A program made the position numbers and the translations under genes. From Candidatus Poseidoniales archaeon (GTDB taxonomy: Archaea; Thermoplasmatota; Poseidoniia; Poseidoniales; Thalassarchaeaceae), in the NCBI GenBank assembly GCA_012959435.1, contig DUDF01000068.1, forward strand, positions 34,468 to 98,467: DNA of 64,000 bases. The letters run 5' to 3'. Under the pieces are notes generated by a model. That model did not search any database. It worked only from the letters and a program-made list of their open reading frames with translations, and was not told the DNA's origin. Positions 16,311 through 62,739 of this stretch are shown here, in pieces (the first letter of the stretch is position 1; every line of letters begins with the position of its first letter).

Positions 16311-18743
16311 ATGCGCGCCTCGGTGAGTCTCTCATCACTTCTGTTGATTGGTGTACTTATTCCTTTACTTGCCTCAACAACTGCAAGCGCTACTTCATTA
16401 GCAAATGCTGGTGTAGTATCAGAGATTGACAGCCACACAGTTGGGATGTGGCAAACTTACGATGGTTATTCAATAGTAGTTAATGAAACAGGTTTCTTAA
16501 CGGCATTAGAAATTAAAAATGATGGCTCAGTTACAGAATCATGGAATTTTACCTTGAATATGTCAATCACAAGTGGAGCGATTGATAATTTCCAACATAG
16601 GCTTGCACTTGGTACTGATTCTGGAGTAAAGGTAATTTCAACTGAATTTCATGATTTACTTTATTCAATCAATATCATTGGGGGTGTTGATTCTGTTGGA
16701 TGGGATGGTAATGGTGACTTATGGGTCGGTGATAGAGCCTACCGATATGTTGCGGAATATGATGATACAGCTGCAACTGGAGTCACGACTCAAACACACC
16801 TCATTAAAGTGACAGCGGTTCTTGGCATGGCAAATGGTAGTGTGATATCTGGAGGAAGAGATTCAATAGTTAGGGTATCAGCACCAAATGGCTCAATGAT
16901 TCATGAGATGATGGACATTCAAAGTGATGTAGAAGGGCTGTATCTAATTGATAATGGGGGTACTCTAGTTACTACCTCTACTACTGGGCAGTTGATAACA
17001 TATTCAACCTCTGATTGGCAAAAGACCGGTGACATCTATCTTTCAACCGGTGGAATCATCAGAACAGTGGAACAAAACACCGATGGGACATTAATTGTAG
17101 GGACTCACAACGGACATCTAACAATATTGAATAGTAGTGATTTATCTGAATTGAGTTCATTCTCATCTTTAGGCGAGATCATCAGTGTTAAACTGAGCCA
17201 AGATAATTCTTTCTTCCTTTTGTCAACTTTTTCTGATAAATCAGATATTATCATGTTTGATTTAGATAGTGATGGGGATGATGTAGTTGATGCTGTAGAT
17301 GACTTCCCCGATGATTCAACTCAACAAATAGATACAGATGGAGACGGTTATGGGGATAACCAACTCGGAAACTATCCCGATAAATACCCACAAGATGCAA
17401 CCCAATGGTTGGATTCAGATGGTGATGGCCATGGTGACAATGCTAGCGGAAATAATGGTGATTTATTCCCATTCAACCCAACTCAATTTCAAGATAGTGA
17501 CGGTGATGGATTTGGGGATAATCCACTAGGCCAAGATGCAGACGCATTCCCGAATGATATCTCACAATGGCAAGATACAGATGGTGATCAGTTAGGTGAC
17601 AACCCAAACGGCACTAATCCAGATGCTTGTCCAACATCAGCAGGAAATTCATACAAGGACAGAAATGGCTGTTCTGATTCAGATAATGATGGCTATAGTG
17701 ATCCACGTGGTGATGATCCAAAGTGCTCATCAACTTATCCAAATGGGGCCGATGCTTATCCTCAAGATGCAACACAGTGGTGTGATACTGATGACGATAA
17801 TTTCGGAGATAACTTGAGTGGTAACAACCCAGATTGGTGTCCTGCAGAGTGGGGTAATAGCACCCGCGGAATCATTTTCAATGCTACAACCAATCTTTAT
17901 GTCACAATACAGAGATTTGGTTGTATTGACTTTGATGGAGATGGTTACGAAGATAGTGGTGAGCAAGATGGGCTAACTGACTGGTCAACCAACAAGAGTG
18001 AGTGGGTAGACAGTGATCGTGACGGTGTTGGAGATAATGCAGATTGGGATGATTTAGATCCGACAGTTTGGACTCTTGAACAGTATTGTGTAAAGAATCC
18101 TACTGATTACTCTAATTGTGAATTTGTATATGTTCCTGTAGATACTTCAAATAATGAACAAGAGTTGTCAGCGAGCGAAAAACGCTCTAAATTAATCAAG
18201 GAATTTTTGGTATATGGGGGCGGTATTGGGATCTTGCTGATTGCAGGAATCTTGGCTATTTGGGGATTAGTTGGTATTGTTAGAACATCAATTGCAAAGC
18301 GAGCACCTGATGCACAATACAGCCACCAGGATGCGACAAAAGAGTTGCAAGCATTTGAAGAGGGAGAGGAGTTCAAGACTCGTGGCGGAATTACAGACCA
18401 GAAAGGCTGGGAAGATGAAAAACTCGGTGATGGTGTAACTGAGGACGAACTATGGGATCTTGCTGATGATATTGAGAAGCCTTCAGCTGTCCCTGATTCA
18501 AGCAAGTTTGCTGATGAAGACTCATCATCGGAGGAACCTGCTGAAGAGTCAGATGATACTTCAGAGCCAGAGCCAGAGCCAGTAGAAGTTGAGAAACAGC
18601 CAACACCTACTCCTGAAGCAGCAACTTCAGAAATGCCTGAGGGCGCACCTCCACTACCGGAAGGTGGATTGCCTGCAGGTTGGACAACAGAGCAGTGGGT
18701 CTACTATGGGCATCAGTGGTGGGACGCGAAGAACAAAAGTTGA
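16311..18743 (+). CDS. Type-I anchored surface protein: signal peptide, beta-propeller-like domain, thrombospondin type-3-like Ca-binding repeats, TM helix, acidic cytoplasmic tail
   Basis: - Signal peptide LLLIGVLIPLLASTTASATS.
- WD/YVTN-like repeats.
- At least 8 D-x-D-x-D-G-x-x-D-x units (DTDGDGYGDN, DSDGDGHGDN, DSDGDGFGDN, DTDGDQLGDN and others).
- TM helix GGGIGILLIAGILAIWGLVGIV.
- Acidic tail containing MPEGAPPLPEGG. Confidence 0.8.
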   Translation: MRASVSLSSLLLIGVLIPLLASTTASATSLANAGVVSEIDSHTVGMWQTYDGYSIVVNETGFLTALEIKNDGSVTESWNFTLNMSITSGAIDNFQHRLALGTDSGVKVISTEFHDLLYSINIIGGVDSVGWDGNGDLWVGDRAYRYVAEYDDTAATGVTTQTHLIKVTAVLGMANGSVISGGRDSIVRVSAPNGSMIHEMMDIQSDVEGLYLIDNGGTLVTTSTTGQLITYSTSDWQKTGDIYLSTGGIIRTVEQNTDGTLIVGTHNGHLTILNSSDLSELSSFSSLGEIISVKLSQDNSFFLLSTFSDKSDIIMFDLDSDGDDVVDAVDDFPDDSTQQIDTDGDGYGDNQLGNYPDKYPQDATQWLDSDGDGHGDNASGNNGDLFPFNPTQFQDSDGDGFGDNPLGQDADAFPNDISQWQDTDGDQLGDNPNGTNPDACPTSAGNSYKDRNGCSDSDNDGYSDPRGDDPKCSSTYPNGADAYPQDATQWCDTDDDNFGDNLSGNNPDWCPAEWGNSTRGIIFNATTNLYVTIQRFGCIDFDGDGYEDSGEQDGLTDWSTNKSEWVDSDRDGVGDNADWDDLDPTVWTLEQYCVKNPTDYSNCEFVYVPVDTSNNEQELSASEKRSKLIKEFLVYGGGIGILLIAGILAIWGLVGIVRTSIAKRAPDAQYSHQDATKELQAFEEGEEFKTRGGITDQKGWEDEKLGDGVTEDELWDLADDIEKPSAVPDSSKFADEDSSSEEPAEESDDTSEPEPEPVEVEKQPTPTPEAATSEMPEGAPPLPEGGLPAGWTTEQWVYYGHQWWDAKNKS
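17260..18062 (+). repeat. Array of TSP3-like calcium-binding repeat codons (Asp-rich) within the CDS
   Basis: There are repeated gat-nnn-gat-ggn-gat-ggn units, and the protein carries DxDxDGxxDxxD motifs. Confidence 0.8.
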
Positions 18744-42442: not shown

Positions 42443-43843
42443 ATGAGCACTGATGTGGATGAATCAGAATCTTCTGGAGATGCTGATTTGACTGATGAAG
42501 TAAAAGTTGACACAAATGAGAAAGAGCCATCTTCAAAAGTTAGTTTCCCTCGTCCATTACCTGATTCTGAGTTTGCTAAACACGAGTTAGTAGCATTCAC
42601 CATAATTGGGCTGGGGATGGCGTTACCTGGGATCGCTTATCTGCTAGGACTTTTCACTGACGTGTGGGTATTATGGGACATTGTTGACTTGAACATCGTG
42701 CAACCGATTATTGGTGAAGGTGATGGTGATTCAAGTTACAACCCAGTTGATACAGCCGCGTATGGGATTCTTCTAGTATCTTTCATCGTCAGTCTATCCG
42801 CATTATTACGAAAGTGGGGTATTTCAAGTGAAGACAGAATGCTTTACTCATTGCTGCCTTGGGTATTATGGGCCGTATTAGTTGAAGTGCATGAGGATGC
42901 AGGACTTTTCGCAGATAATGTTGATTCTTGGTTTGTTTCTCCCATTATCCATTTTCAAACAGCTGGTTGGATTTTACTTATTGGAATGTTTGTTCCAATT
43001 TTGAAGGAGATGGAATCCAGTCCTGAAAAGGATAAGTTTCTCACATTTTTGCCATTGATTGTAGTGGTAGTTAGCCACTTGATTCTATTTTACGAATTTT
43101 CAGTTACAGGCAATATTGCTGTAGTACTAGTGATTCCTGGATTCTTTTGGTTTTTCTTTGAAGTTGAAGAATTCAGTTGGAATAACTGGTTCAATGATTG
43201 GAATCAACTAGAGCGCTCTTTACTCTATGCTGGAATCGGTGCTTGTATCTTGAATGCGGTTAGTTTGATGGGATTCGTCCAAATCCAGTTAGTTGCTGGA
43301 GAATTAACGGTTTGGCCAGCATTTGTGATACTTGGTGGCCCACTCATTATCGTAATGATTCTACGCCATCGAGGCTTGGATTCCTTTAGGGATTTGATTA
43401 GCAAAGGAATAACACCTGGTATGCTAGATGAGGGGATGACTCTCCAAGAGTGGGAAAGTCTCGAAGGCAAAGAGTTTGAAGAAAATGAAAAGTTTGTCAA
43501 GCAGGCGGCTTTTGCAACCCCCATTGTATTGATGGCAGTTTATGGTCAACTTGTAGATGGTTTTGCATCATGGTTGGGGGTTGATGTTTTTGGATATTCT
43601 GAAAAGCATGTCCTGTCAACTTTGGTAATGCGTTTAGCAGGTGGCGATGAAGGTGGTTCTGGAGGTGGCTGGGGATTTTTTGTGGTGAAAATGGCCTTGG
43701 CTTTGGTGGTTATCATGTTCTTTGCTGAGTGGCGATGGGAAAAACGCCAATCTCATCTTCGATTATTGGTTGTCCTCGGACTTTTAACTGTGGGGCTCGC
43801 TCCGGGCCTTAGGGACCTAGGACGGCTCATGTTGGGTGTTTGA
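42443..43843 (+). CDS. Polytopic membrane protein; the C-terminal part is DUF63-like (archaeal membrane protein family)
   Basis: There are about 9 TM segments. [26 protein letters not shown] resembles the conserved DUF63 core as I recall it. The N-terminus is acidic. Function unknown. Confidence 0.5.
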
Positions 43844-43890
43844 AGCCGCACCGTTCAAACACCTGTTTGATTCCGACCCTATGGGTCGAC

Positions 43891-45501
43891 ATGGATAGAC
43901 TACCTTCTTCGGTGCGAACTAGCGACAAACAATACGCCACAAATTCAGAACATAATCAAGCCATTGTGGTGGCAATGGAGGGTCGTATGGATGCTGTGGT
44001 GGACGGAGGTGGTGGGAAATATGTTGAACGTCATCGCAGCCGAGGAAAAATGTTGCCTAGAGAGCGAATTGAAGCCATTTGTGACCCTGGTACCGCTTTT
44101 CTAGAATTGAGTAAATTAGCAGCAAACGGTCTCTATGATGGCAACGCCCACAGCGCTGGGATCATTACTGGAATCGGAATGGTTCATGGTCGTGAATGTA
44201 TGTTCGTAGCCAATGATGCAACTGTGAAAGGCGGCTCATACTATCCAATGACTGTTAAAAAACACATTCGTGCCCAAAGTATTGCTGAAGAGAATGGTTT
44301 GCCTTGTATCTATTTAGTAGATTCTGGTGGTGCGTTTTTACCATTACAGGACGAGGTTTTCCCTGACCGAGAACACTTCGGCAGAATATTCCACAATCAA
44401 GCAGTAATGAGTGGTAAAGGTATACCTCAGATTTCTGCAGTCCTTGGTTCATGTACTGCAGGAGGTGCCTATGTACCTGCTATGAGTGATGAATCAATTA
44501 TTGTCAAAGGCAATGGGACCATTTTTCTTGCTGGTCCTCCACTTGTGAAGGCAGCTACAGGGGAGGAGGTGACAGCCGAAGCATTAGGCGGGGCAGAAGT
44601 CCATACGGTAGAATCAGGAGTTGCTGACCATTTTGCAGAAGATGAGCCAGAAGCCCTAAGAATAGTTCGTAACATTGTAGAGAATCTTCCTGCACCTTAC
44701 AAAGTTGCGTTAGATGTAGCAACTCCTGAACCACCACATTACGATCCTGAAGAGTTATTGGGAATAATTCCTGAAGATAACAGAATGCCATATGATGTTA
44801 GAGAAGTGATTGCAAGAATCACCGACGGTTCTCGTTTCCACGAGTTCAAGGCTCGTTATGGTACCACGATTGTTTGTGGATTTGCTCGAATTCACGGTTA
44901 TCCAGTTGGTATAGTTGCTAACAACGGAATCCTATTTTCAGAATCAGCACTCAAAGCCACTCACTTCATTGAATTGTGTGGTCAGCGAGGCACTCCGCTT
45001 GTATTTTTACAGAACATCACTGGATTCATGGTTGGAAGTGAATATGAGGCTGGTGGAATTGCTAAAGATGGAGCAAAAATGGTTACTGCAGTTGCTTGTG
45101 CGCCAGTGCCAAAGTTCACAGTAATTATCGGCGGTTCTCATGGCGCTGGGAATTATGCTATGTGTGGCAGAGGATATGACCCGCGATTCCTTTTCATGTG
45201 GCCCAATTCTAGGATATCAGTAATGGGTGGGCCTCAGGCAGCAAGTGTGTTGACTACCGTGAAGCAGGACCAACGAGCGCGTGAGGGTCAGGCACCAATG
45301 GATGGTGCTGAGTTAGATGACTTCCAAAAACCGATTCTAGAGAGGTATGAAACCGAAGGCTCCCCATACTATGCCACTGCCCGATTGTGGGATGATGGAA
45401 TCATCGACCCAAGAGATACTAGAGATGTACTGGGGTTGAGTATTTCTGCTGCACTGAATGGCCCATTCCCCGATTCAGAATATGGCATTTTCAGAATGTG
45501 A
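43891..45501 (+). CDS. Acyl-CoA carboxylase carboxyltransferase subunit, methylcrotonyl-CoA carboxylase beta-like
   Basis: [29 protein letters not shown] and the overall carboxyltransferase pattern resemble MccB/LiuB. I prefer the start at ATG 43891. Confidence 0.9.
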
Positions 45502-45514
45502 AGGAGCAATTGCA

Positions 45515-46384
45515 ATGAATGATTTTTCAATTGGAGAATTGATGCCAGAAACTGGCCTGTGCACCCTCAATATTGACGGTTCAGTGGGATATCTGACGTT
45601 ACAACGTGAGGATGTATTCAATGCCTTAAGTCCAGAATTGATTGGAGAATTATGTGATTTACTTGATTGGAGTAAAGAACGCTCAGTAAGTGAGCGTGGT
45701 CAATTGAAGGATAGCAATGGTGAGCCGTATCTTAGAGTAATTGTATTGACTGGTAGTGGCAAACATTTCTGCGCAGGCGCGGATATTGGTTGGATGCAGG
45801 CATCAGGGGCTCAAACATCTGAACAAAATCGCAATGATGCGGGGCGTCTTGATAGATTATTCAACACCCTCTGGTCACACCCATGTTTCACTATCGGTGC
45901 GGTACAGGGTGTCGCTCTAGGAGGCGGGGCTGGTCTAATTGCTTGCCTTGATCACGTGATTGGGGAGAGCAAAACAAATATTGCATTATCTGAAGGTAAA
46001 CTAGGAATTTTACCAGCAGTCATTGGTCCCTATGTATATCGCAGGCTTGGTAGTGCTCAAACTCGCCGTCTCGCAATGTTGGCAAAACGCATTGGAGTTG
46101 AGGAGGCTTTACGAATCGGAATGATTGATGAGCAGGTGGAATCTCCTGAACAATTTAGTGAGGCGATTCAAGGCGTGGTGACAGAAGTGTTGACCACAGG
46201 CCCTTCTGCCGTAGGGGAAGCGAAACGTTTGGTATTACAGTTTGACCGTTGGGATGGTACTGATGAGGAACTACGCCAGTGGACGTTAGATAAGACCTCG
46301 GAGATGCGTGGTTCTTCAGAAGGTCAGGAAGGCCTGTCGTCATTCATTGAACGGCGCCCTCCATCATGGAACAGTGAGGATTGA
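45515..46384 (+). CDS. Enoyl-CoA hydratase (crotonase family), probable methylglutaconyl-CoA hydratase
   Basis: The oxyanion-hole motifs GSGKHFCAGADI and GVALGGGAGL are present. AAGGAG lies 8 nt upstream of ATG 45515. The gene sits between MCC subunit genes, as in liu clusters. Confidence 0.88.
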   Translation: MNDFSIGELMPETGLCTLNIDGSVGYLTLQREDVFNALSPELIGELCDLLDWSKERSVSERGQLKDSNGEPYLRVIVLTGSGKHFCAGADIGWMQASGAQTSEQNRNDAGRLDRLFNTLWSHPCFTIGAVQGVALGGGAGLIACLDHVIGESKTNIALSEGKLGILPAVIGPYVYRRLGSAQTRRLAMLAKRIGVEEALRIGMIDEQVESPEQFSEAIQGVVTEVLTTGPSAVGEAKRLVLQFDRWDGTDEELRQWTLDKTSEMRGSSEGQEGLSSFIERRPPSWNSED

Positions 46385-46390
46385 GCAACA

Positions 46391-47932
46391 ATGGATTTGC
46401 CTTCTTGGATTGCTAATGCGCCTTTCAAATTTGGCAAGGTTCTAGTTGCCAACCGTGGTGAAATTGCCTGTAGAATTATTCGAGGATGCCAAGAGATGGG
46501 GCTAGCCACTGTAGCGATTTACAATGATGCTGATGCAAATGCTATGCATGTTGAGTTAGCAGATGAATCAGTACACCTAGAAGGTGATGATTTAGCATCT
46601 ACTTATCTATCAGCAAATTCAATAATCAATGCTTGTCGAATAAGTAGGGCGGATGCACTTCATCCAGGATACGGATTTCTTTCTGAGCGAGCAGATTTTG
46701 CAGAGTTGGTGGGGTCAAGTGGAATAATCTGGATTGGCCCACCTGCAAAAGCGATTGATTCAATGGGTGATAAAGTAAAGGCTCGTAGATTGATGCTCAA
46801 TGCAGGTGTCCCACTTGTACCCGGTGCCGAACTAACATTTCAGGATTCTTTAGCTGATACTGTTGATGAATTACGTAGGGCGTCTAGTGAAGTAGGGTTT
46901 CCAATTTTACTGAAAGCCTCAGCCGGAGGTGGCGGAAAAGGAATGAGGTCCGTTGAAACATCTGGGGAATTGGAGGCGGCTTATCTATCAGCCAAGCGTG
47001 AAGCACTTTCAGCATTTGGAGATGACACCATCTATCTAGAAAGGAGAATAGTTTCACCGCGTCATATTGAAATTCAGATACTCTGTGATACTCATGGAGG
47101 TGCAATCCATTTACTAGAGCGCGAATGTAGTATCCAAAGGAGACATCAGAAGGTTATCGAAGAAGCACCAAGTGTCGCATTATCTGTTGGGATGCGGGAG
47201 CAAATGGGTGAGGCTGCGATAAATGCCGCTAAAGCAGTTCACTATGTTGGTGCTGGTACTGTAGAGTTCTTGCTTTCAGGAGATGAATTTTTCTTTTTGG
47301 AAATGAATACTCGTCTCCAAGTTGAGCACCCTGTGACTGAATTGGTTACAGGGGTTGATCTAGTTCAAGAGCAATTACGAATTGCTGCAGGTCATCCATT
47401 AGAGATTGCTCAAGATGAGGTATTTCCTCGTGGGTGGGCGATTGAGGCTCGAATTTATTCCGAGGATGCAGCTAATGGATTCCTACCTTCTATTGGTCCA
47501 ATAGCAGTTTTCAGGCCCCCCGAAGGGCCAGGTATTCGTCTTGATACTGGTGTCAGACAGGGTGATGAAGCAAGAATTGACTTTGACCCGATGCTTGCAA
47601 AACTCATTGTTCATGCTCCTGATAGGCAGCGTGCTATTGAGCGAATGTCTAGAGCATTAGAGGATTTCATAATCCTAGGTGTCACCACAAATATTGAATT
47701 TCTAAGGAGTGCGATCACTCATCAAAAGTTTGCTGCTGGTGACACAACAACGGATTTCATAGAGTCAATATGGCCTGATGGATGGGAGTCATTAGGCGAC
47801 CCTGCAGCGGCTGTAATCGCCGCAGCAAGCGCTGAGAAAGCCGGCCTTCATTTGGGCATATTAAGTGTTGAACTTGAAGATTCACCAGACCCGTATAATC
47901 CGTTTTCCACATTGGGTAGGAGATATCCATGA
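46391..47932 (+). CDS. Biotin carboxylase subunit (BC domain of acyl-CoA carboxylase alpha)
   Basis: VANRGEIACRIIR, the ATP-grasp motif GGGGKGMR and EMNTRLQVEHPVTE are present. The protein ends shortly after the BC domain. Confidence 0.93.
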   Translation: MDLPSWIANAPFKFGKVLVANRGEIACRIIRGCQEMGLATVAIYNDADANAMHVELADESVHLEGDDLASTYLSANSIINACRISRADALHPGYGFLSERADFAELVGSSGIIWIGPPAKAIDSMGDKVKARRLMLNAGVPLVPGAELTFQDSLADTVDELRRASSEVGFPILLKASAGGGGKGMRSVETSGELEAAYLSAKREALSAFGDDTIYLERRIVSPRHIEIQILCDTHGGAIHLLERECSIQRRHQKVIEEAPSVALSVGMREQMGEAAINAAKAVHYVGAGTVEFLLSGDEFFFLEMNTRLQVEHPVTELVTGVDLVQEQLRIAAGHPLEIAQDEVFPRGWAIEARIYSEDAANGFLPSIGPIAVFRPPEGPGIRLDTGVRQGDEARIDFDPMLAKLIVHAPDRQRAIERMSRALEDFIILGVTTNIEFLRSAITHQKFAAGDTTTDFIESIWPDGWESLGDPAAAVIAAASAEKAGLHLGILSVELEDSPDPYNPFSTLGRRYP

Positions 47933-47942
47933 GGTATTCAAA

Positions 47943-48452
47943 ATGAAAGAATTCATCAATCAAACAGATGACAGTGATTGGGCTGTTGGCGTTATTGATA
48001 CCGCAAGTGGTTACTCTGCAATCAAAATTGAAGTTAATGGTGAACCCTTGGACCTCCAAGATTGGCGGGTATCAATCGGCGCATCTAGTGATGAAGTATC
48101 ACTTGAGCGTGGTGATGGAGAGGAACGGTTGGTACTTGTCAAAGTGGAAGATACTTGGTGGGTGTATCACAACGGCCATACCTCAAGAGTGAGTGTTGTT
48201 GAGCGAGGAGCAGTGAGTACCTTCGACAGTATGGGTGGGTTGACTTCACCAATGCCTGGGAAAATACTCAGTGTCATGGCATCGGTTGGTGAACCAGTAG
48301 ACAAAGGACAGACCTTACTAATTTTAGAAGCGATGAAAATGGAGAATCGGATTTGTTCCCCGGTTGATGGAATAGTATCAGCAATACACTTTGAGGCCGG
48401 AGACCAAGTTAATCAAGGAGCCATTCTAATTGCGATTGAAGAGTCGGATTAA
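47943..48452 (+). CDS. Biotin carboxyl carrier protein (BT-like linker plus biotinyl domain)
   Basis: The biotinylation motif EAMKMEN is present, with PMPGKILSV upstream. ATG 47943 lies 10 nt after the BC stop. Confidence 0.85.
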   Translation: MKEFINQTDDSDWAVGVIDTASGYSAIKIEVNGEPLDLQDWRVSIGASSDEVSLERGDGEERLVLVKVEDTWWVYHNGHTSRVSVVERGAVSTFDSMGGLTSPMPGKILSVMASVGEPVDKGQTLLILEAMKMENRICSPVDGIVSAIHFEAGDQVNQGAILIAIEESD

Positions 48453-49802: not shown

Positions 49803-51977
49803 CTAGAATATTGTAATACCAAATGAAATAGCCCCGTATCCTATGGAGATAAATCCAGTGATTAAGTATCCTAGAATACTACCTCCATTGAGTAAAGGTA
49901 ACCCTGCTTGAGGCCGCCCCATAGCGACATACCCCATCAGAACTACATAACCAAGAAGCCCTCCAATGAGGGAACCGATTGCAACGAACATCGGGTCACT
50001 CAATCCCATAAAAGTGCCATCAGATGGTAGGAATGTAAGTGCTGAGATGACTAGCATACCTGGGAAGATGACATCTCCAAGACCCATGAATAGCGCATCT
50101 CCTGTATTCTTCTTAGGTCTGGGGCGAGGTGGTTCAGGGGTAGGGAGTTTGGCCCCACTCTTTGCCCCATGCTCTTTCTTTGCAGAAGCAGGTGGCTCGT
50201 CCATCTTACTAATGGTATCCTCACCTTCGTCAAGGAAAGAATATCCTTTATCTTGAGGTGCTACTAACAGTATTGGAAGTTTGAGTCCAATCATCGTATC
50301 TGCGAGGTCAAGCATGTGCTTTGACTTGTACACTGCGTACCAATCATATATTGCCGCCACTATCATGAAAATTAGAATTAATGTTGGTACAAAACTTACT
50401 CCGATAATGGTGATAACTCCCGCTCCAGTTAGGATTCCAGTAGTGTTCACAACGTACCATTCAGGTCTGATTGTAAGGGCAATCATCAGTACAGTAGAAG
50501 CGAGTAAGGCGACTATTTGGGACCAGTAAATTGGCAACCAGTATCCAGCGGAATCCTCTAGAATTATTGCTGGTTCGTTAACTGGTGTAGCAATGATTGC
50601 ACTTTGAGTAGTGTTTACAGTATATGTTGTAAGGATGCCATCCTCAATATCGATTTCATCCCAAGCAGGATTATCAATGGTGTGGAGTATCATGTCTATT
50701 GGGCCTTGTGAAACGGGTCCTTCAATAGTTAAACTCTCAACCATGACCCAACCTGAAAACATCCTTGTTTCTCCACCTGATGCAATCCACACATCAACTC
50801 TGCCGTCATGTTGGTCATCAGCAAGCATGATACCTTGAATATCAGAATCAAATGCATCACGTTCGTTGAATTTTATGTGCTCTTCAACGCTCATCTCTGC
50901 ACCATCCCATACATAGCCGTAGACCTTCCCTGTCTCAGTCCCTAGCATCAACAAACTGTCAGTTGCATTTGCATCCCACCAATTATGTCCACTCCATGGG
51001 GAGTGGCCAAATGTGGATGCAGTGAATGCATCTCCTGAATTAGGGGTAACTTGCCAAAGTATAGTGGCATTTACTAAATCAGTTCCACCAGTATGTTGAC
51101 TATCTGGAATTTCAATAATTCCTGCCCAGCCATAAGATACCAAGAGTAGAGTATTTTCATTGAGCATGCTACCTTGCATAAATTCTCCAGAATTGAATTG
51201 TTCTGGGAGACTATAGACCCAACCTGAATAAGTGACATTCATATTGTTGAATGGGTCAATTCGTTGCATAAAATTGTTGTAGATAGCCCAGTCATTTTCT
51301 TCTGCAGAAAAGCCAACAACGCATGCGATATCGACATGGCTTGTGATAGGTGTACCATCAGATTTGTCTAATTTCTGCCAGCGATTACCATCACACATCA
51401 CATAAGAATCAAGATTATCTACCATTCCGATTCCATGAGCGGAATAACCACCATCGTCTAATTGGAGTGGGAAATTCCATTCCGCAACTGCTGATTGACC
51501 ACTTTCCAATCCGCTTGGCTCACTCATTTTGATGAGATGTGTTTGGTTAGTAACTATGAAAGATGAAGGGTCAAAATCAACGAAGACAATTTCAGCGTCC
51601 AAAGCACTTTCATCTCGGAATTCAGGAATGGGCTGTGGTTCATCCATAGCATAAGACGCTAGAGGAACCATAGCATAAGAGAGAGAAATCCATAGGATAA
51701 ACAGGACTCCCCACTTGATAATGGATTGAAGCCCTCTTTTTGCTAACCAGATAATAAACGCGGTAAAAACTAGAATCAGAATAAATTCCAAGCCGATTAA
51801 ACCAACTTTTGTAGTTCCAGCCTCTCCAAACGCTCTTGCTTCTGGTCGATCCCAAAACGGCTGAATGTAGATAGCAAGCAATATTGTACCAACAAACATC
51901 ACCCCCATTGTACTCATTGAACGCCATTGTCCAGCCATCTGAGAAAGGATGTTTGCGAAGCGGCTCTCACCTGTCAT
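49803..51977 (-). CDS. Presenilin/signal-peptide-peptidase-type intramembrane aspartyl protease (archaeal PSH family) with a large extracytoplasmic insertion
   Basis: - Catalytic YD (IYDWYAVYKSKHML, codons 50343-50348).
- GLGD (FMGLGDVIFPGML, 50073-50084).
- PAL-like QAGLPLLNGG.
- KLPILLV is also present.
- A roughly 370-aa non-TM domain lies between the third TM and the protease core.
- I prefer the start at ATG 51977, because the 52097 start would overlap divergent folC. Confidence 0.8.
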   Translation of the reverse strand: MTGESRFANILSQMAGQWRSMSTMGVMFVGTILLAIYIQPFWDRPEARAFGEAGTTKVGLIGLEFILILVFTAFIIWLAKRGLQSIIKWGVLFILWISLSYAMVPLASYAMDEPQPIPEFRDESALDAEIVFVDFDPSSFIVTNQTHLIKMSEPSGLESGQSAVAEWNFPLQLDDGGYSAHGIGMVDNLDSYVMCDGNRWQKLDKSDGTPITSHVDIACVVGFSAEENDWAIYNNFMQRIDPFNNMNVTYSGWVYSLPEQFNSGEFMQGSMLNENTLLLVSYGWAGIIEIPDSQHTGGTDLVNATILWQVTPNSGDAFTASTFGHSPWSGHNWWDANATDSLLMLGTETGKVYGYVWDGAEMSVEEHIKFNERDAFDSDIQGIMLADDQHDGRVDVWIASGGETRMFSGWVMVESLTIEGPVSQGPIDMILHTIDNPAWDEIDIEDGILTTYTVNTTQSAIIATPVNEPAIILEDSAGYWLPIYWSQIVALLASTVLMIALTIRPEWYVVNTTGILTGAGVITIIGVSFVPTLILIFMIVAAIYDWYAVYKSKHMLDLADTMIGLKLPILLVAPQDKGYSFLDEGEDTISKMDEPPASAKKEHGAKSGAKLPTPEPPRPRPKKNTGDALFMGLGDVIFPGMLVISALTFLPSDGTFMGLSDPMFVAIGSLIGGLLGYVVLMGYVAMGRPQAGLPLLNGGSILGYLITGFISIGYGAISFGITIF

Positions 51978-52043: not shown

Positions 52044-53396
52044 GTGAGTGATGTTCGAGAGTGGTTTACCGGGCTGAAAGTGCTTGGAATGCGCCAAAGT
52101 CTTGAAACAACCGCGATTTTACTAGCGCGTTTGGGCATGCCGCAAATGAAATTCCCATCAATTCATGTGGCGGGTAGTAACGGTAAAGGAACGACTTGCT
52201 CAATTCTGTCAAATTGTCTGTCACTCGCGGGCGTAAGTTGTGGATTGTTTACTTCTCCTCACCTTTGTTTTGTAGAAGAACGGATAAGAATAGATGGCGT
52301 CCCTATTTCACCCGAAATATTTGACCAGTGTCTTGAAGAAATACGGGGAGCGGCTCTAGTTGAACCAATAACAATGCCAACTTATTATGAGGCTACTTTT
52401 CTAGTTGCGATGCTGGCTTTCGAGGATGCTGGAATTGACCGAGCTGTAATTGAGACAGGACTTGGTGGCAGGCTTGATTCCACAAGATTAGTGCACGCAG
52501 ATTGTTGTGTTCTTACAGAGTTAGCACTTGAACACACCGATGTACTGGGTGAAACCCTAGGTGAGATTGCTGCTGAGAAGGCTGCAATTACTCGGCCGGG
52601 TGAGATTTTTCTTGCTAAATGGAATTATGATGCGGAGGCAAGAAAATCAATAGAAGATGCTGTTGGTGACCACAAACTAGGATTTTGGTGGAGACCAGAT
52701 CGAGCCTTATTGGTTCGTTTTGATAATACTGGCAAGAGTCATCGCCCAATTTCAGAAATTGCTACACCAAGTGGCTGGTCACCATATCAGAAGGAGGCAT
52801 CAATTCTCGCCCATGCCACCTTGACTTTGCTTGAATTGTACGAGGCTGCTAGTATGATGCCTAGTGCACTATTGCATACAGTTTGGCCCGGGCGCGTTCA
52901 ATGGCTTGAACATGAAGGCGTTCCAATTCTGATAGATGCGGCACACAACCCTAGTGGGATGCAAAAAACATGCGACCAATTACGCATCCAGATGGAACAA
53001 GATGAAGCCCCAACACCTGGAGTGGTATTGTTAGGTTGCACTTCGCAAACTGATTTAGTTGGATTCCTCAATCCGCTGGTAGAATTACTGATTCAAGGCG
53101 AGGTTGATCACATTGTGGTCACTGAGCCACAGAAAGGAAGGAGACAGGCGATTTCAACATCTGAGTTGGCTGCTGAGTTAGAAGCACAAGGAGTCCCAGC
53201 ATTCATTGAACAAGTGAAAAATCCAAAAGAAGCATTAGAAAGAGCACTGGAGTTATCAAAACAAGATGCAAACAAACCAATCCTTGGCATCGGTTCCATC
53301 TATTTAGTAGGGAATCTATTAACAGCACTTGGATTAGATACAATAGATGCGATGACAACCCTTCGCCCTTCAGAGGAGGGTGTGCATTGGACATGA
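52044..53396 (+). CDS. folC: Folylpolyglutamate synthase / dihydrofolate synthase (Mur-ligase family)
   Basis: The P-loop HVAGSNGKGTTCS, EVGLGG-like ETGLGGRLD and DAAHNPSG are present. GTG start. Confidence 0.88.
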   Translation: MSDVREWFTGLKVLGMRQSLETTAILLARLGMPQMKFPSIHVAGSNGKGTTCSILSNCLSLAGVSCGLFTSPHLCFVEERIRIDGVPISPEIFDQCLEEIRGAALVEPITMPTYYEATFLVAMLAFEDAGIDRAVIETGLGGRLDSTRLVHADCCVLTELALEHTDVLGETLGEIAAEKAAITRPGEIFLAKWNYDAEARKSIEDAVGDHKLGFWWRPDRALLVRFDNTGKSHRPISEIATPSGWSPYQKEASILAHATLTLLELYEAASMMPSALLHTVWPGRVQWLEHEGVPILIDAAHNPSGMQKTCDQLRIQMEQDEAPTPGVVLLGCTSQTDLVGFLNPLVELLIQGEVDHIVVTEPQKGRRQAISTSELAAELEAQGVPAFIEQVKNPKEALERALELSKQDANKPILGIGSIYLVGNLLTALGLDTIDAMTTLRPSEEGVHWT

Positions 53397-57624: not shown

Positions 57625-60600
57625 TCAGTAGTCGTCATCGTCATCATAATCGTCGTCATCATAATCATCGTCATCTTCATCATCAAACATGTGATCATCA
57701 TCAAACAATTCTGAGCGACCAGTAAGGGCTCCCTTCATGCTGACGTATGCAACAATAGGCAGTACAATCATGGCAATAATGATTCCAATTACAGCGAGTA
57801 GATTTTGGCGAGCTCCTTCAACCCAACCCATGCCAAATGCGTAATCCACAGAAACTCCTACGCTAGCGCTATTATCTGACTCGTCAACTTCAGTAATTTC
57901 ATTTTCTGAGTCAACAATTACAATGACTCTGTCAACACCTTTCTCAGCGATCCAAGTTGCAGAAATAGGAATCGATTCATCGGCGATGCCATTCAGTTTT
58001 TGGGTCGCAAACGGTTTTTCAGAGTCGCCAGAATAGAATCCAACAACAAATCCAGAATTAGTTGTGCCACCGAGATTTGAAATCCATGCAGTAATCTCAA
58101 TTTTGTCACCGTTGGCAACAATCTCACGATCGGCTGAAATGCGTTCAACAGTCAACTGTGCCCCAAGTGCGCCGAATCGAATCCATTGAAGTTCATGGTC
58201 ACCATTTAGGTCCACAGGTTCTCTTACAGGGTCACTCTTGGAATTTCCTTCCGTTGCTAGTGGATTACCAGCTGAATCCCAACCTTCAATCCAGAATCCA
58301 ACTTCATAATCCTGAAGTGGCGGATTCATTCCATCGCCAATCAAGTCAACGGTACCAGTCCAAGTGATTGCTTGTTCCTCTTGAAGCATACCCAGTAGTG
58401 ATGAGCCTGAGGAAATCTGGCGCTGGTTCTCATCACGCATTAACCAATGAACCCATTGTGGACTTCTAGATAGGTCAGCATCTTCCCATCCAATGAACTC
58501 AACTGGTACTTCAGTAAGTGCAGAACTGTTGGCGATATCAATTACATCAATCGGTGCTAGCCTTTCAAGAACTCTAGGTGGTGCGTGGTCAACCTTAACT
58601 TGAAGAGTTGTGGAAACAGTATCACGGGTCATGTCCTCACCTCTTCCAGGGATATTTCTAACCCCTGCTAGGAAAGTTCTAGTCTCGCTAGAAGCGAGGG
58701 TAGGTGCAGCCCCAAGAGGAACTTCTAAACTAAATCCTCCTTCATCAGTTAGGCTACCATCTGACCAGTATTGTACACCATCAAAGACTTCAACAGTAAT
58801 TCCAAGATTTTTCGGTGCGGGAACATCGCTACCTTCGTAGACAACACGTCCAGACCAGCGCAAACGGTCGTTAGGAACAACTCTACTCCCGTCAAATACA
58901 GGACCAACTCGTGGTTCCTGAACGTCTTCTACAGTGTAAGTTTCAGCATCTAGAACCAAGTCATTCTCTATTCTGAATGTGTGCTCCGTGAAGATTTCTC
59001 GGCGTGGTTCAGTACTGCCCAATTGAGTGAATTCCAAGGCGACATCTGACAAATCAGCATCAGGCCAATCCCATGAGAACTGGAATGCAAATGTGACCAT
59101 CACCCAAGGCAAACCGGTTTCGTTAGTGGTGACAATTCCTCCACATGACTCATCAAGTAGATTATTGCAAGCGGGCGAAATAACAAGGAAATCATCATCA
59201 GTCCAGAAAGTTTCGTTACTACCGCTATACGACAATCGTTGTTGGTCTCTTTCAGGGTCTGGCCCTTCAAAGTCAAAGATGATGGAAATATCAGTGAAGT
59301 CAATCAAACCGTTTGCATCAACGAGTCCGAGTGTGAGGTATTGGGTTGTTCCAGCAAATGCTCTCTCTCCATCTTCGTGGCCTGCCCAGTGCAGTCCGGT
59401 GAACACCGAGTCCATGTCTTTCCTAGTTCTGTAAGTTACCAAGTCATAATCAAATCCTGGCCCGTCTGAACGCAGTAGTGAATTTCCTGCCACATCAGTC
59501 CCAGTAACATAGTATGATACTCGTGCCATATTTGGATTACTAGAATCATCAATAATTGCAAAGAATAACTTGTCAATGTCGTCAGTCATGTTGATCATTG
59601 TTTGGTTGATGTATTCCGCTGCGTCAGCATTACCATTACGGTTAGAGTCATGTTCTGACTCTACCCAGTAGTGAAGAGTCAATACTTCCGGTGCGCCTAT
59701 TGCATCCTGAATTCGGATACGTACTGCTTGATCTTCATAACCAGCTTCGTATGCATTATCCAGAGGTGTAGCTTCTATCAGCGATGGACTAGTTGCATCA
59801 ACTCGGATGGTTCGCTGCCACGATTCGTTGATTGACAAGACCTTGAGTGGGTCTCGTGGATTGTCAATTTGTACCTCATAAAACACACCCTCTGGGCGAT
59901 TAATAGTATCTACAGGGACTGGGATAAAGAACTCCCCATATTGGTTGGAGCGGTCTTTTGCTTGTAGGAAGTCACCTTCAGGTGTTCGCTTGATAACTGC
60001 AACATCAAAAGTAGAGTCTAGAGGTGCATCTTGGGTTCCATCATACCACACTGCTCCTTGGAAGTAGAGTGTTTCTCCAGATTTAACCCATTGATTTTCT
60101 GGCACATCATCGTGGTGGACTGCTCCATCATTGTCTCTAACCTTCATCCACCCAAGTCCATAGGATTGGTTTACACGAATGCCAGGTGTGTTACTTGTTC
60201 GTGATGATAGTGACATTGGTGAGAGACCTTGGTCATCAGTACAACTGACTCTGAATCCAACATTGCTCTGTTCGTTGAAGTTAGAGGTCACGCGGAAAGC
60301 CCAGTGGATTTCTAAAATCCCGTTACTGTTATTGGTCCATGTTGCAGAAGCATCTGGAATAATCCAGTCTTCGGGGTCATCATCAACAAGTGTTCCATCA
60401 CTGTTCCAAGTTAGGGCAGGGGTTTCACTTGAGGGTTGAGCCAAAAAGGTAAGAGTTGCTGTAGAAATCCCTCCAGCATCTTCACCAATCACATGTCTAC
60501 TTACGACTTCATAAGCGTCAATGGTTTCATGTAACACCATACTTTCATCCCAATTAATGTCAAGATTCACCGTTTGCATGACGTAAGTAATTGAGAATGA

Positions 60601-62739
60601 ATTAATCACCACATTCCCTGAAGAGTCTGATTCAATTTGGATAGGAATTAGAATCGTTCCAGAACCGGTGTCTGGGATTTCATTATTTATTGCATTAACA
60701 ATGGAACTACCCGAACTGCCGGTTGCTATGACTGTTGAAAGTAGGGCGTTAGTGTGAGTCCATTCAGAACTGCCATCACTACCAATGTCTAACTTCACGT
60801 TTTGAGGGGCATTAGAGTAGAGAGCGACTTGGAAGTCATCTACGATAGGGCTGTATGAGTTTCCCCCTCCAGAGTAAAAGTAGAAGCAAAGGGAGAGGTA
60901 AGTCAACCCCGTAGGGAAATTTACTGTTTGGCCAGACGTTCCCAAAGTTGTCGAAGTTCCCGATGTGCAACCGCTTGATGTGGTCCACTTTACAGATAGT
61001 GAACTTCCACCTAGTTCAGTTGCGTTCCACCATACTTGGGCAGCGACAGGTCCATTTGAGCCAGTGCCTCCAAAATATGGGGTTCGCATCCACATTAATC
61101 CTGAGGATGCGTATGAACCAGTATAACCGAGGTTAATTGTGTCAATCAGGGCAGAAACATTGCTGTTTGTACTGTTTAGGTATGCTCGCCATCCTAATTG
61201 GATTCCAGAATTTGCGAAAATCACTTTTGTTCCTATTTGTGCTTGTTTCCAAGTTATTCCACCATCATTTGTAACTTCGTATTCAACTGATGTACCAGTT
61301 GGCTTCCAAGATATTGCTGCTGTTAGTGTAAGGTCGGGGGTGGCTCTCGTTGCAATGATTGCAGATGATGTAATTATTCCAGAAGTGGTTGTGGGTGTTC
61401 CCATTGAAGTGGCAGTTGATTGGCCATTAGTCAGAATCTTGTGTGAACTTCCACTTGGACACTGGTTGTTGTAAAAACAAGTCCAAGCAATTGTTCCAGC
61501 GCCAGTTGATTCAATGCCATAATGAGCTCGGTTTGGGAACAAAATATCACCTTGATGTTCTGGCCATGCTCCACCTCTGAGGAAAACAGAGTGGTAGTTT
61601 TTCGCCTTACAATTGTTGTTACTTGCTTGCCAAGTACAGTAGACATTCACTGTCACTCTGTCCCCAGCAACATCAAGTCCCGAGGGCAGTCCCTTTCCGC
61701 TTGCGACCATCATTAACAGTTGTGTGGACAATGCTTGAACGGGGCTTGAGCGGTTGACATTCCACAAATAGTAATTGTAATTTGGATTCGAATATTGGGT
61801 TGTTAGCACATACATTTCATTGTCAACGGGGTCAAAGGCAACTCCCCCAATCTTGTAATTCCCGCCATACCATGCTTGATTGCATGACCAAACAGCCTGC
61901 CCAGCAGAATTCACAGACACAGTCCATTTTGCGATGTAGTTGTAATTCCAACTGGTGGTCCAAATAGTACCATTCCCATCGCTAGTGATGTCAGAAAGGT
62001 AACGCATAGTAGATGTTGTGCAGCTGTTATACTGCAAACTAGCAGTTCCAACCCTAGCACCAGTTGTGCTGTTATATTGATGAATAGTTGCGAAATTAGA
62101 TGTTCCTGAATTAGGCCAATGAGCGACATAAGTATTATTTTCTTGGAAAGCCACAGGACCAGCATAATTCCAAACCCCTCCAGAATAGGCTGAATATCCC
62201 TGTGTAGTTGCGCCAATTAAATCAGAAGCAGCAAATCCGATTGCCCCGCCGGTTGTATTGTGAACTGTGTTTGGTGCACTAGAAATATCGTTGGTCCTTG
62301 TTAAAGTCCAACTGGCTTCACTTTGCATCTCTCTAAGGGATGTTTGATCGTTACTGACATCGATTGAGGTACGATAATCATATCCAAAGTAAGGGACATT
62401 CATTGGTCCATCTGTTGTTGAAGGGCCGCCGAAGTGTGTATTGGTAGTTGCATTGGCCCAAGTAGTTGTTGAAGGGGTTCCAGTGAGGGAGAAACTGGCA
62501 GATGTGACATCGGCACCATAGGGCATGTTCACCCCGGCTGTCCCACCATTACCTTGACCAGTGAAAGTGTGGGAGAAGCTGGTAGTACCGTCAGCAAACT
62601 GGGTTTCAGTGGTTGCTGCGATTGCTAATGGCAATACTGCGGAGAATAGCATTAACCCAACTAGGAAAAATGAGATAGTTTTGATTTGAGTAATGCATCT
62701 GAACATAGGCGGTCCCTTAGGGACCGTTAGGGTTACCAT
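57625..62739 (-). CDS. Giant (1704 aa) type-I anchored surface protein with a CARDB domain and a poly-Asp/Tyr cytoplasmic tail
   Basis: - Signal/anchor FFLVGLMLFSAVLPLAIAA.
- Ser/Thr/Asn/Gly-rich beta ectodomain with many sequons.
- C-terminal CARDB-like domain (EITAWISNLGGTTNSGFVVGFYSG...VDESDNSA).
- TM helix LLAVIGIIIAMIVLPIVAYV.
- Tail DDEDDDDYDDDDYDDDDDY.
- Alternative start at ATG 62706. Confidence 0.85.
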   Translation of the reverse strand: MVTLTVPKGPPMFRCITQIKTISFFLVGLMLFSAVLPLAIAATTETQFADGTTSFSHTFTGQGNGGTAGVNMPYGADVTSASFSLTGTPSTTTWANATTNTHFGGPSTTDGPMNVPYFGYDYRTSIDVSNDQTSLREMQSEASWTLTRTNDISSAPNTVHNTTGGAIGFAASDLIGATTQGYSAYSGGVWNYAGPVAFQENNTYVAHWPNSGTSNFATIHQYNSTTGARVGTASLQYNSCTTSTMRYLSDITSDGNGTIWTTSWNYNYIAKWTVSVNSAGQAVWSCNQAWYGGNYKIGGVAFDPVDNEMYVLTTQYSNPNYNYYLWNVNRSSPVQALSTQLLMMVASGKGLPSGLDVAGDRVTVNVYCTWQASNNNCKAKNYHSVFLRGGAWPEHQGDILFPNRAHYGIESTGAGTIAWTCFYNNQCPSGSSHKILTNGQSTATSMGTPTTTSGIITSSAIIATRATPDLTLTAAISWKPTGTSVEYEVTNDGGITWKQAQIGTKVIFANSGIQLGWRAYLNSTNSNVSALIDTINLGYTGSYASSGLMWMRTPYFGGTGSNGPVAAQVWWNATELGGSSLSVKWTTSSGCTSGTSTTLGTSGQTVNFPTGLTYLSLCFYFYSGGGNSYSPIVDDFQVALYSNAPQNVKLDIGSDGSSEWTHTNALLSTVIATGSSGSSIVNAINNEIPDTGSGTILIPIQIESDSSGNVVINSFSITYVMQTVNLDINWDESMVLHETIDAYEVVSRHVIGEDAGGISTATLTFLAQPSSETPALTWNSDGTLVDDDPEDWIIPDASATWTNNSNGILEIHWAFRVTSNFNEQSNVGFRVSCTDDQGLSPMSLSSRTSNTPGIRVNQSYGLGWMKVRDNDGAVHHDDVPENQWVKSGETLYFQGAVWYDGTQDAPLDSTFDVAVIKRTPEGDFLQAKDRSNQYGEFFIPVPVDTINRPEGVFYEVQIDNPRDPLKVLSINESWQRTIRVDATSPSLIEATPLDNAYEAGYEDQAVRIRIQDAIGAPEVLTLHYWVESEHDSNRNGNADAAEYINQTMINMTDDIDKLFFAIIDDSSNPNMARVSYYVTGTDVAGNSLLRSDGPGFDYDLVTYRTRKDMDSVFTGLHWAGHEDGERAFAGTTQYLTLGLVDANGLIDFTDISIIFDFEGPDPERDQQRLSYSGSNETFWTDDDFLVISPACNNLLDESCGGIVTTNETGLPWVMVTFAFQFSWDWPDADLSDVALEFTQLGSTEPRREIFTEHTFRIENDLVLDAETYTVEDVQEPRVGPVFDGSRVVPNDRLRWSGRVVYEGSDVPAPKNLGITVEVFDGVQYWSDGSLTDEGGFSLEVPLGAAPTLASSETRTFLAGVRNIPGRGEDMTRDTVSTTLQVKVDHAPPRVLERLAPIDVIDIANSSALTEVPVEFIGWEDADLSRSPQWVHWLMRDENQRQISSGSSLLGMLQEEQAITWTGTVDLIGDGMNPPLQDYEVGFWIEGWDSAGNPLATEGNSKSDPVREPVDLNGDHELQWIRFGALGAQLTVERISADREIVANGDKIEITAWISNLGGTTNSGFVVGFYSGDSEKPFATQKLNGIADESIPISATWIAEKGVDRVIVIVDSENEITEVDESDNSASVGVSVDYAFGMGWVEGARQNLLAVIGIIIAMIVLPIVAYVSMKGALTGRSELFDDDHMFDDEDDDDYDDDDYDDDDDY

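Follow-up and report, generated by a model that had tools for sequence, protein, structure and literature searches.

A presenilin homologue of the archaeal order Poseidoniales with a predicted extracytoplasmic beta-propeller between transmembrane helices 3 and 4

A gene for an archaeal presenilin homologue (PSH) was analysed in a stretch of 64,000 nucleotides (nt) from a Candidatus Poseidoniales archaeon (GenBank assembly GCA_012959435.1, contig DUDF01000068.1, positions 34,468 to 98,467 of the forward strand), referred to below as the window; nucleotide positions count from its first letter. Judged by its sequence, the product is a PSH-type GxGD intramembrane aspartyl protease in presenilin orientation (N-terminus inside, nine transmembrane (TM) helices). 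Between TM3 and TM4 it carries an insert of about 370 amino acids, which is predicted to fold into a seven-bladed beta-propeller outside the cytoplasm. This long form (about 690-780 amino acids) is the standard PSH orthologue of the order Poseidoniales (Marine Group II, MGII) and apparently represents an undescribed variant of a known family. We propose that the protein is an intact PSH with an outward-facing propeller, and that this propeller selects or gates substrates or recruits a partner; taken as a whole, we regard this statement as evenly balanced between true and false.

The protease core was assigned by profile searches and by alignment with a solved PSH. Pfam model PF06550 matched residues 484-708 (model positions 89-278 of 283; E-value 2.6e-49, 168.7 bits, cutoff 23.9), the NCBIfam equivalog model for PSH, NF041679, scored 225 bits at a curated cutoff of 125 in a match split into two stretches, and the PSH of Methanoculleus marisnigri (MCMJR1, 301 amino acids, PDB 4hyc) was aligned with an E-value of 4.9e-30. 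The catalytic motif YD (amino acids 544-545, 50343-50348) lies in the hydrophobic segment 531-551, and GLGD (amino acids 632-635, 50073-50084) in the segment 627-649; both align with their counterparts in 4hyc. At the PAL position we find QAGLPLLNGG (amino acids 690-699, 49881-49910), and PQAGLPLLNGG (689-699) aligns with PQAGLPPLNGG of 4hyc. That the PSH motif is not a literal PAL had already been stated for MCMJR1 (PMC2947513). Conservation was evaluated in 47 long-form sequences spanning the whole order Poseidoniales; Y544, D545, G632-L-G-D635 and Q690-AGLPLLN-G699 are conserved to at least 95%, with G698 slightly under this cutoff. The motifs give no reason to doubt that the core would be catalytically competent. 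An earlier note on this DNA, made from the sequence without database searches, had named the gene an archaeal presenilin homologue with the full GxGD signature. The hidden Markov model (HMM) searches and the 4hyc alignment bear this out, and every motif coordinate given there turned out to be exact; HMLDLA and KLPILLV are present as well as YD, GLGD and QAGLPLLNGG.

Hydropathy analysis detected nine hydrophobic segments, of which three come first (approx. 22-42, 57-78 and 87-110), followed by none at 112-480 and then by six more. In the alignment with 4hyc, residues 47-107 of the window protein pair with PSH residues 35-93, and residue 491 pairs with PSH residue 108; the extra sequence therefore stands in for the short TM3-TM4 loop, which has about 15 residues in PSH. 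The alignment with a short orthologue, P0160, splits into two blocks, 52001-51660 and 50510-49812, which bracket 50511-51659, or about 383 codons. AlphaFold2 (AF2) was run on the whole protein, using a full-length alignment of 22 sequences, and on the insert alone. In the whole-protein model, residues 120-480 form a confident all-beta region (block means of the predicted local distance difference test (pLDDT) mostly 85-95), the insert alone reached a predicted TM-score (pTM) of 0.82, and both models contain 28 strands grouped by four, corresponding to seven blades. AF2 was confident on the novel insert yet poor on the well-known PSH core, which is the reverse of expectation. When both models were compared with the PDB using Foldseek, the top 50 matches listed per search were almost all beta-propellers (the insert model had 1491 matches at E<=10). 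The best matches were the seven-bladed propellers of RACK1, Atg18/WIPI, DDB1-BPB and G-beta, and BamB was also among the matches, with E-values of approx. 5e-9, TM-scores of approx. 0.5 and identities of 6-12%. As a model-based prediction, the assignment of the insert to the propeller fold is solid. No specific structural relative and no nicastrin was found among the PDB matches listed for either model. A Pfam scan of the insert at E-values up to 5 yielded no family, and neither did NCBIfam. Likewise, the repeat HMMs for WD40, FG-GAP, Kelch and PQQ gave no significant match; in relatives, only FG-GAP_3 (0.077) and Kelch_3 (0.37) appeared, both sub-threshold. The earlier note had described an insertion of roughly 370 amino acids behind three N-terminal TM helices, soluble, beta-rich and propeller-like. 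Its position agrees with the hydropathy and with the alignments to 4hyc and P0160, its character agrees with the structure prediction and the Foldseek matches, and the repeat-like motifs GWVYSL, GWAGIIEI, GKVYGYVWDG and VWIASGG are all present and lie within predicted beta-strands.

The insert is strongly acidic (59 D+E versus 11 K+R, net charge approx. −48) and contains five N-x-S/T sequons. One propeller blade holds an acidic loop, DDQHDGRVD, which resembles the calcium loops of FG-GAP and DxDxDG type. D387, D391 and G392 of this loop are invariant in 22 close homologues; order-wide, only D387 reaches 80%, and D391, G392 and D395 stay below. We infer no more than a putative calcium-binding function for it. 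A disulfide between C195 and C219 was also considered, as this pair is invariant in close relatives, but many distant long forms have a single cysteine and it was dropped as a general feature.

Concerning the membrane side, the short loops inferred to be cytoplasmic contain 18 K+R, compared with 2 in the external ones (positive-inside count), and presenilin/PSH topology places the TM3-TM4 loop on the outside. Since the insert and the basic TM6-TM7 loop are three helices apart, they would be on opposite faces. The linker within the latter varies among homologues in both sequence and length. Topology, charge count, acidity and sequons are concordant and consistently predict an external insert, as the earlier note had assumed when it called the domain extracytoplasmic.

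The distribution of the long form was examined at the level of proteins and of genomes. A search of 1.84 billion representative proteins with the insert profile returned 30 hits, about 20 of which are proteins of 688-779 amino acids with the domain in the equivalent place; PF06550 followed the insert in all nine long hits tested. The other hits are fragments or marginal repeat matches. Among the latter, P0044 (trypsin plus propeller) and P0048 (2559 amino acids, repetitive) were rejected as homologous contexts. The insert domain is tied almost exclusively to PSH. A scan of GTDB with one genome per species gave 158 relatives, and 80 loci were kept for analysis. All 80 span the full 724 residues at 33-89% identity, and the PSH reading frame is unbroken in these independent genome loci as well as in the window. 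Nearly all are named as Poseidoniales or as unclassified marine Euryarchaeota, and they include both Poseidoniaceae (MGIIa) and Thalassarchaeaceae (MGIIb); the nearest relatives of the window's protein are Thalassarchaeaceae. Two of the contigs carrying a long PSH were filed under bacteria, namely L040 (CAXRJJ010000003.1, metagenome-assembled genome (MAG) of a ‘Yoonia sp.’) and L077 (PBRN01000113.1, ‘Pseudobdellovibrionaceae’ MAG). Both have their genes arranged as in MGII (serS, biotin carboxylase cluster) and are most likely mis-binned Poseidoniales. Downstream of PSH, serS is found on the same strand in 77/80 loci (with a gap of 49 nt in the window), and a divergent folC-like gene is located upstream in 71/80. 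This order of folC-like gene, PSH and serS is order-wide housekeeping synteny and not evidence of a functional operon.

Besides the long forms, PSH proteins without the insert exist. A search with the C-terminal core detected many PSH proteins of 346-381 amino acids, approx. 55% identical in the core and labelled by their submitters as Poseidoniales or Thalassarchaeaceae. Short forms such as P0160, P0218 and P0228 share with the long form the genomic slot, the N-terminal motif QWxSM...DxPExRAFGExGTT and 48-55% identity in TM1-3 and the catalytic core, but lack the insert. The distance that separates PEWY from the N-terminal motif is strictly bimodal, with 123-129 amino acids in 118 short forms, 454-495 amino acids in 24 long forms and no value in between. 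Three distinct short-form clusters occupy the slot between the folC-like gene and serS, and a second PSH copy was found neither at any of the loci nor in the window. Because of this common slot and the lack of any locus with two copies, short and long forms are orthologues, and paralogy is ruled out. In a neighbour-joining (NJ) tree of the core rooted with MCMJR1 segments, the short forms constitute one clade nested among the long forms; their monophyly was recovered in 79 of 100 NJ bootstraps, and the short clade was never sister to all long forms. Since the short clade is nested and long forms occur in both families, a single gain of the insert at the root of the order, followed by a single loss, is favoured. 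The short form is probably the result of such a secondary loss, although the rooting of the tree is weak. Thus, the survey of PSH homologues suggested in the earlier note found the long form across both MGII families and insert-free orthologues in one sublineage.

Sequence evolution differs between the two parts of the protein. Taken in pairs, the 47 long forms are on average 62% identical in the membrane core (minimum 50%), against 22% in the insert (minimum 11%). Among close relatives, the ratio of nonsynonymous to synonymous substitution rates (dN/dS) lies at 0.14-0.21 for the insert, compared with 0.03-0.08 for the core. Purifying selection acts on the insert, yet its sequence diverges at about three times the rate of the membrane core. 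Within the insert only C219, G346 and G350 reach 95% conservation and, therefore, no conserved catalytic-looking or ligand-binding constellation is recognizable. Given the insert-free orthologues and the lack of a conserved polar site, the insert appears to be an accessory module tuned by lineage rather than a part that the enzyme cannot do without. A surface that is selected but changing suits an exposed interaction or steric module and speaks neither for an enzyme nor for a passenger devoid of function, but against the two. As to its origin, an hhalign comparison of the insert profile with the local propeller-like protein of 810 amino acids (16311-18743) gave a probability of 1%, i.e., no relationship, and capture of a local domain is unsupported for this reason.

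Known proteases with additional domains were used for comparison. The window protein and MCMJR1 have in common the curated-HMM family, the YD and GxGD aspartates, PQAGLPxLNGG, nine TM helices and the orientation. They differ in length (724 versus 301 amino acids), in the TM3-TM4 loop, where approx. 15 residues in MCMJR1 correspond to the propeller of approx. 370 amino acids, and in the TM6-TM7 loop, which is longer in the window protein. Gamma-secretase resembles the window protein in its homologous catalytic subunit and in having a large extracellular domain over the enzyme. However, nicastrin forms a type-I subunit of its own, and its ectodomain has an alpha/beta (aminopeptidase/transferrin-receptor-like) fold, whereas the insert is a predicted all-beta propeller in the protease chain itself; the two have no relationship in sequence or fold, and the window protein lacks an APH-1 or PEN-2 context. 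The analogy to nicastrin drawn in the earlier note would hold for function only, the insert being modelled as a propeller and not as an alpha/beta ectodomain. SPPL2a/b/c are GxGD proteases with a built-in luminal or extracellular domain as well, but they are eukaryotic, carry an N-terminal protease-associated (PA) fold before TM1, have the orientation of signal peptide peptidase (SPP) and act on type-II substrates, while the insert is located between TM3 and TM4. A Pfam scan detected no PA domain in the window protein, and its topology is presenilin-like rather than SPP-like. A further case is the bacterial site-2 protease RseP, whose periplasmic PDZ tandem between TM segments has been proposed as a size-exclusion filter for substrates; RseP is a metalloprotease of family M50, unrelated to A22, the family of presenilin and PSH, and its extra domains have the PDZ fold. 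The window protein is a PSH by every sequence criterion tested, departs from PSH in architecture and belongs with neither nicastrin nor SPPL2. Most likely, its propeller would be analogous to nicastrin, the PA domain of SPPL2 and the PDZ tandem of RseP in role, not in fold or ancestry.

In the mechanism we propose, the propeller, which is predicted to be joined to the outer ends of TM3 and TM4, would hang from TM3 and thus be positioned on the external face of the enzyme. There it may act as a lineage-tuned ectodomain, which selects or sterically gates the extracellular stubs of type-I membrane substrates; alternatively, it may recruit a partner performing this selection or gating. Cleavage between the YD and GLGD aspartates would come after the selection step. 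In the gamma-secretase-substrate structures of Yang and of Zhou, both of 2019, the substrate helix reportedly docks among TM2, TM3 and TM5 of presenilin. With TM3 helping to line the docking site, a domain borne on TM3 would come to lie beside or above the emerging stub of a type-I substrate. The nicastrin ectodomain sterically limits the substrates of gamma-secretase to type-I proteins with short stubs (PMC7248309), and the PA domains of SPPL2 affect substrate recognition (PMC12043953). Owing to the analogy with these domains, substrate selection or gating is taken as the likeliest role.

Several observations weigh against this proposal. No polar or charged patch of the insert is conserved across the order, and one sublineage of Poseidoniales has insert-free orthologues at the same locus, implying that the core works without the propeller. 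The fold predicted for the insert is generic (TM-score approx. 0.5) and offers no functional clue by itself. Further, the membrane core was modelled by AF2 with a pLDDT below 50 (residues 1-62 and 505-637) and, consequently, the model does not show where the propeller lies with respect to the substrate gate. Finally, the suggested tie between propeller and substrate is drawn by analogy.

Part of the same evidence would also suit other roles of the propeller. It could serve as a sensor or regulator; on binding a small ligand, Ca2+/Mg2+ cations or a polymer outside the cell, it would switch the protease allosterically and without substrate contact. Its extreme acidity, the DDxxDGxxD loop resembling FG-GAP calcium sites, the fact that the central channel of propellers often binds ligands, and the purifying selection on the insert speak for this possibility. 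We nevertheless consider it unlikely, as ligand-binding residues are not conserved order-wide, the acidic loop having a single residue at 80%, and as no family-level match to any ligand-binding propeller was obtained. A docking or localisation module, tying the protease to the S-layer, the envelope or a surface complex without a direct role in catalysis or substrate choice, would agree with a fold that is a generic scaffold for protein interaction (BamB, RACK1, DDB1-BPB), with the rapid lineage-specific divergence typical of exposed interaction domains and with the dispensability of the domain in one sublineage. However, a general envelope module should turn up in other surface proteins too, whereas this domain is essentially only fused to PSH, and its insertion beside TM3 rather than at a terminus argues in the same direction; such a module is quite unlikely in our view.

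It is improbable that the insert is a tolerated passenger, acquired once, with little or no present function and now decaying. The very low conservation could be explained in this way, as could the clade in which the insert was lost or never present while synteny remained unchanged. On the other hand, a dN/dS of approx. 0.15 clearly indicates purifying selection, and the reading frame, the insert length (approx. 306-369 amino acids) and the profile match, with the shared fold that it implies, persist throughout both MGII families and about 20 clusters at 50% identity; intermediate lengths are missing, as seen in the spacing of either 123-129 or 454-495 amino acids. An artefact, be it misassembly, a fusion by a missed stop codon or an insert that is in fact cytoplasmic or transmembrane, is already effectively refuted. 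Inconsistent annotation, including truncated calls that start in the insert (P0237, P0140, P0162), and the poor AF2 model of the membrane part might have hinted at one, but the frame is uninterrupted in the window and at 80 independent loci, the insert contains no hydrophobic segment, and homology and the positive-inside count place it outside.

If our proposal of a substrate-selecting or partner-recruiting propeller is followed, type-I membrane proteins encoded nearby come into view as candidate substrates. The products of 3021-9335, 16311-18743 and 57625-62739 each combine a signal-like segment at the N-terminus with one TM helix at the C-terminal end and an acidic tail. The earlier note had pointed to these three as possible substrates; their existence as type-I proteins with acidic tails is confirmed, but a tie to the protease is not, as nothing beyond topology and general synteny connects them. 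The second protein, on the plus strand, shows weak sub-threshold propeller matches (EML, WDR55), and its cytoplasmic tail of approx. 150 amino acids is acidic and rich in proline. The third, a CARDB surface protein of 1704 amino acids on the minus strand, carries a C-terminal module consisting of GW-x-[DE]-x-x-R-x-[NQ]-P-L, a TM helix in which Pro or Gly occurs, and an acidic tail, 30-40 amino acids long, whose last two residues are W/Y-E/Y. This module is conserved in 42 of 43 related Poseidoniales loci with this protein (in the remaining one, L027, it is masked by a run of N). Of the 48 long-form loci long enough to include this position, 43 have the CARDB protein beside an Lhr-type helicase gene; it is absent there in the short-form loci L081-84 and L087-88, which have an M50 peptidase and other genes instead. 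This co-occurrence of CARDB protein and long form amounts to one phylogenetic event plus general synteny, and is a lead, not evidence. Tentatively, and with more doubt than confidence, the long-form PSH may be viewed as a naturally occurring single-chain equivalent of presenilin plus nicastrin, whose outer propeller, co-evolving rapidly, would recognise or gate the stubs of type-I surface proteins of MGII (the CARDB protein being a candidate), so that cleavage would free their acidic cytoplasmic tails.

The positions of the gene and its parts are listed in Table 1.

Table 1. Positions of the long-form PSH gene and of its segments in the window.
Feature	Position	Strand	Basis and remarks
Long-form PSH gene, complete, 724 amino acids plus stop	49803..51977	(-)	Open reading frame translation, ATG start, NCBIfam PSH equivalog 225 bits
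TM1-TM3, amino acids 22-110	51648..51914	(-)	Hydropathy; P0160 residues 9-120 at 48% identity; 4hyc residues 35-93
Inserted domain, predicted extracytoplasmic seven-bladed beta-propeller, amino acids 111-482	50532..51647	(-)	AF2, Foldseek, bracket by short orthologue
Acidic loop DDQHDGRVD, amino acids 387-395, similar to FG-GAP/DxDxDG calcium loops	50793..50819	(-)	In one propeller blade
TM4-TM6, amino acids 483-551, including first catalytic motif YD	50325..50531	(-)	Alignment to 4hyc residues 108-205
TM6-TM7 cytoplasmic loop, amino acids 552-626	50100..50324	(-)	HMLDLA/KLPILLV conserved, then basic proline-rich linker; 12 K+R
TM7-TM9, amino acids 627-724, with GLGD and PQAGLPLLNGG	49806..50099	(-)	Alignment to 4hyc residues 213-293

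According to the homologue alignment, ATG 51977 is the start in most homologues as well. The alternative, longest open reading frame (ORF) starts at TTG 52097, encodes 764 amino acids and runs into the divergent folC-like gene (Mur-ligase-type, 52044-53396), overlapping its GTG start. With the start at ATG 51977, only about 66 nt are left between the two genes for two divergent promoters. Two ORFs on the opposite strand within the PSH gene, at 49966-50256 (+, 96 amino acids) and 50281-50529 (+, 82 amino acids), lack support and are probably spurious. A biotin-dependent carboxylase cluster at 43840-48452 (+) is syntenic with PSH-serS across the order; it encodes a carboxyltransferase, an enoyl-CoA hydratase-like protein, a biotin carboxylase and a biotin carboxyl carrier protein. 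Starting at GTG 47865, the ORF of the latter overlaps the last part of the biotin carboxylase gene and is probably over-extended.

Database entries label the long form plainly as “PSH” or “presenilin-like A22 family membrane protease”. The public ‘PSH’ calls P0237, P0140 and P0162, of 280-412 amino acids, are truncated long forms starting within the propeller; as a result, long forms can pass for ordinary short PSH in surveys. Public annotation thus hides the long-form architecture. Presenilin was unmentioned in the top-ranked MGII papers, and no paper joining presenilin and Poseidoniales was found in the literature search, which did not cover the survey of archaeal intramembrane aspartyl proteases by Raut, Glass and Lieberman (Proteins 2021), where long forms might be mentioned.

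On these predictions, a PSH with a built-in ectodomain is a fixed feature of most of an archaeal order that is abundant worldwide. For presenilin, archaeal PSH serves as the standard cofactor-free model, and we know of no physiological substrate or means of substrate selection described for it. The long form and its natural insert-free orthologue would offer a direct route to the effect of an ectodomain on the substrate choice of a GxGD protease without the four-subunit gamma-secretase. If the tentative view of a single-chain counterpart of presenilin and nicastrin were true, it would mean regulated intramembrane proteolysis in the most abundant archaea of the surface ocean and would provide a first handle on the physiological substrates of PSH.

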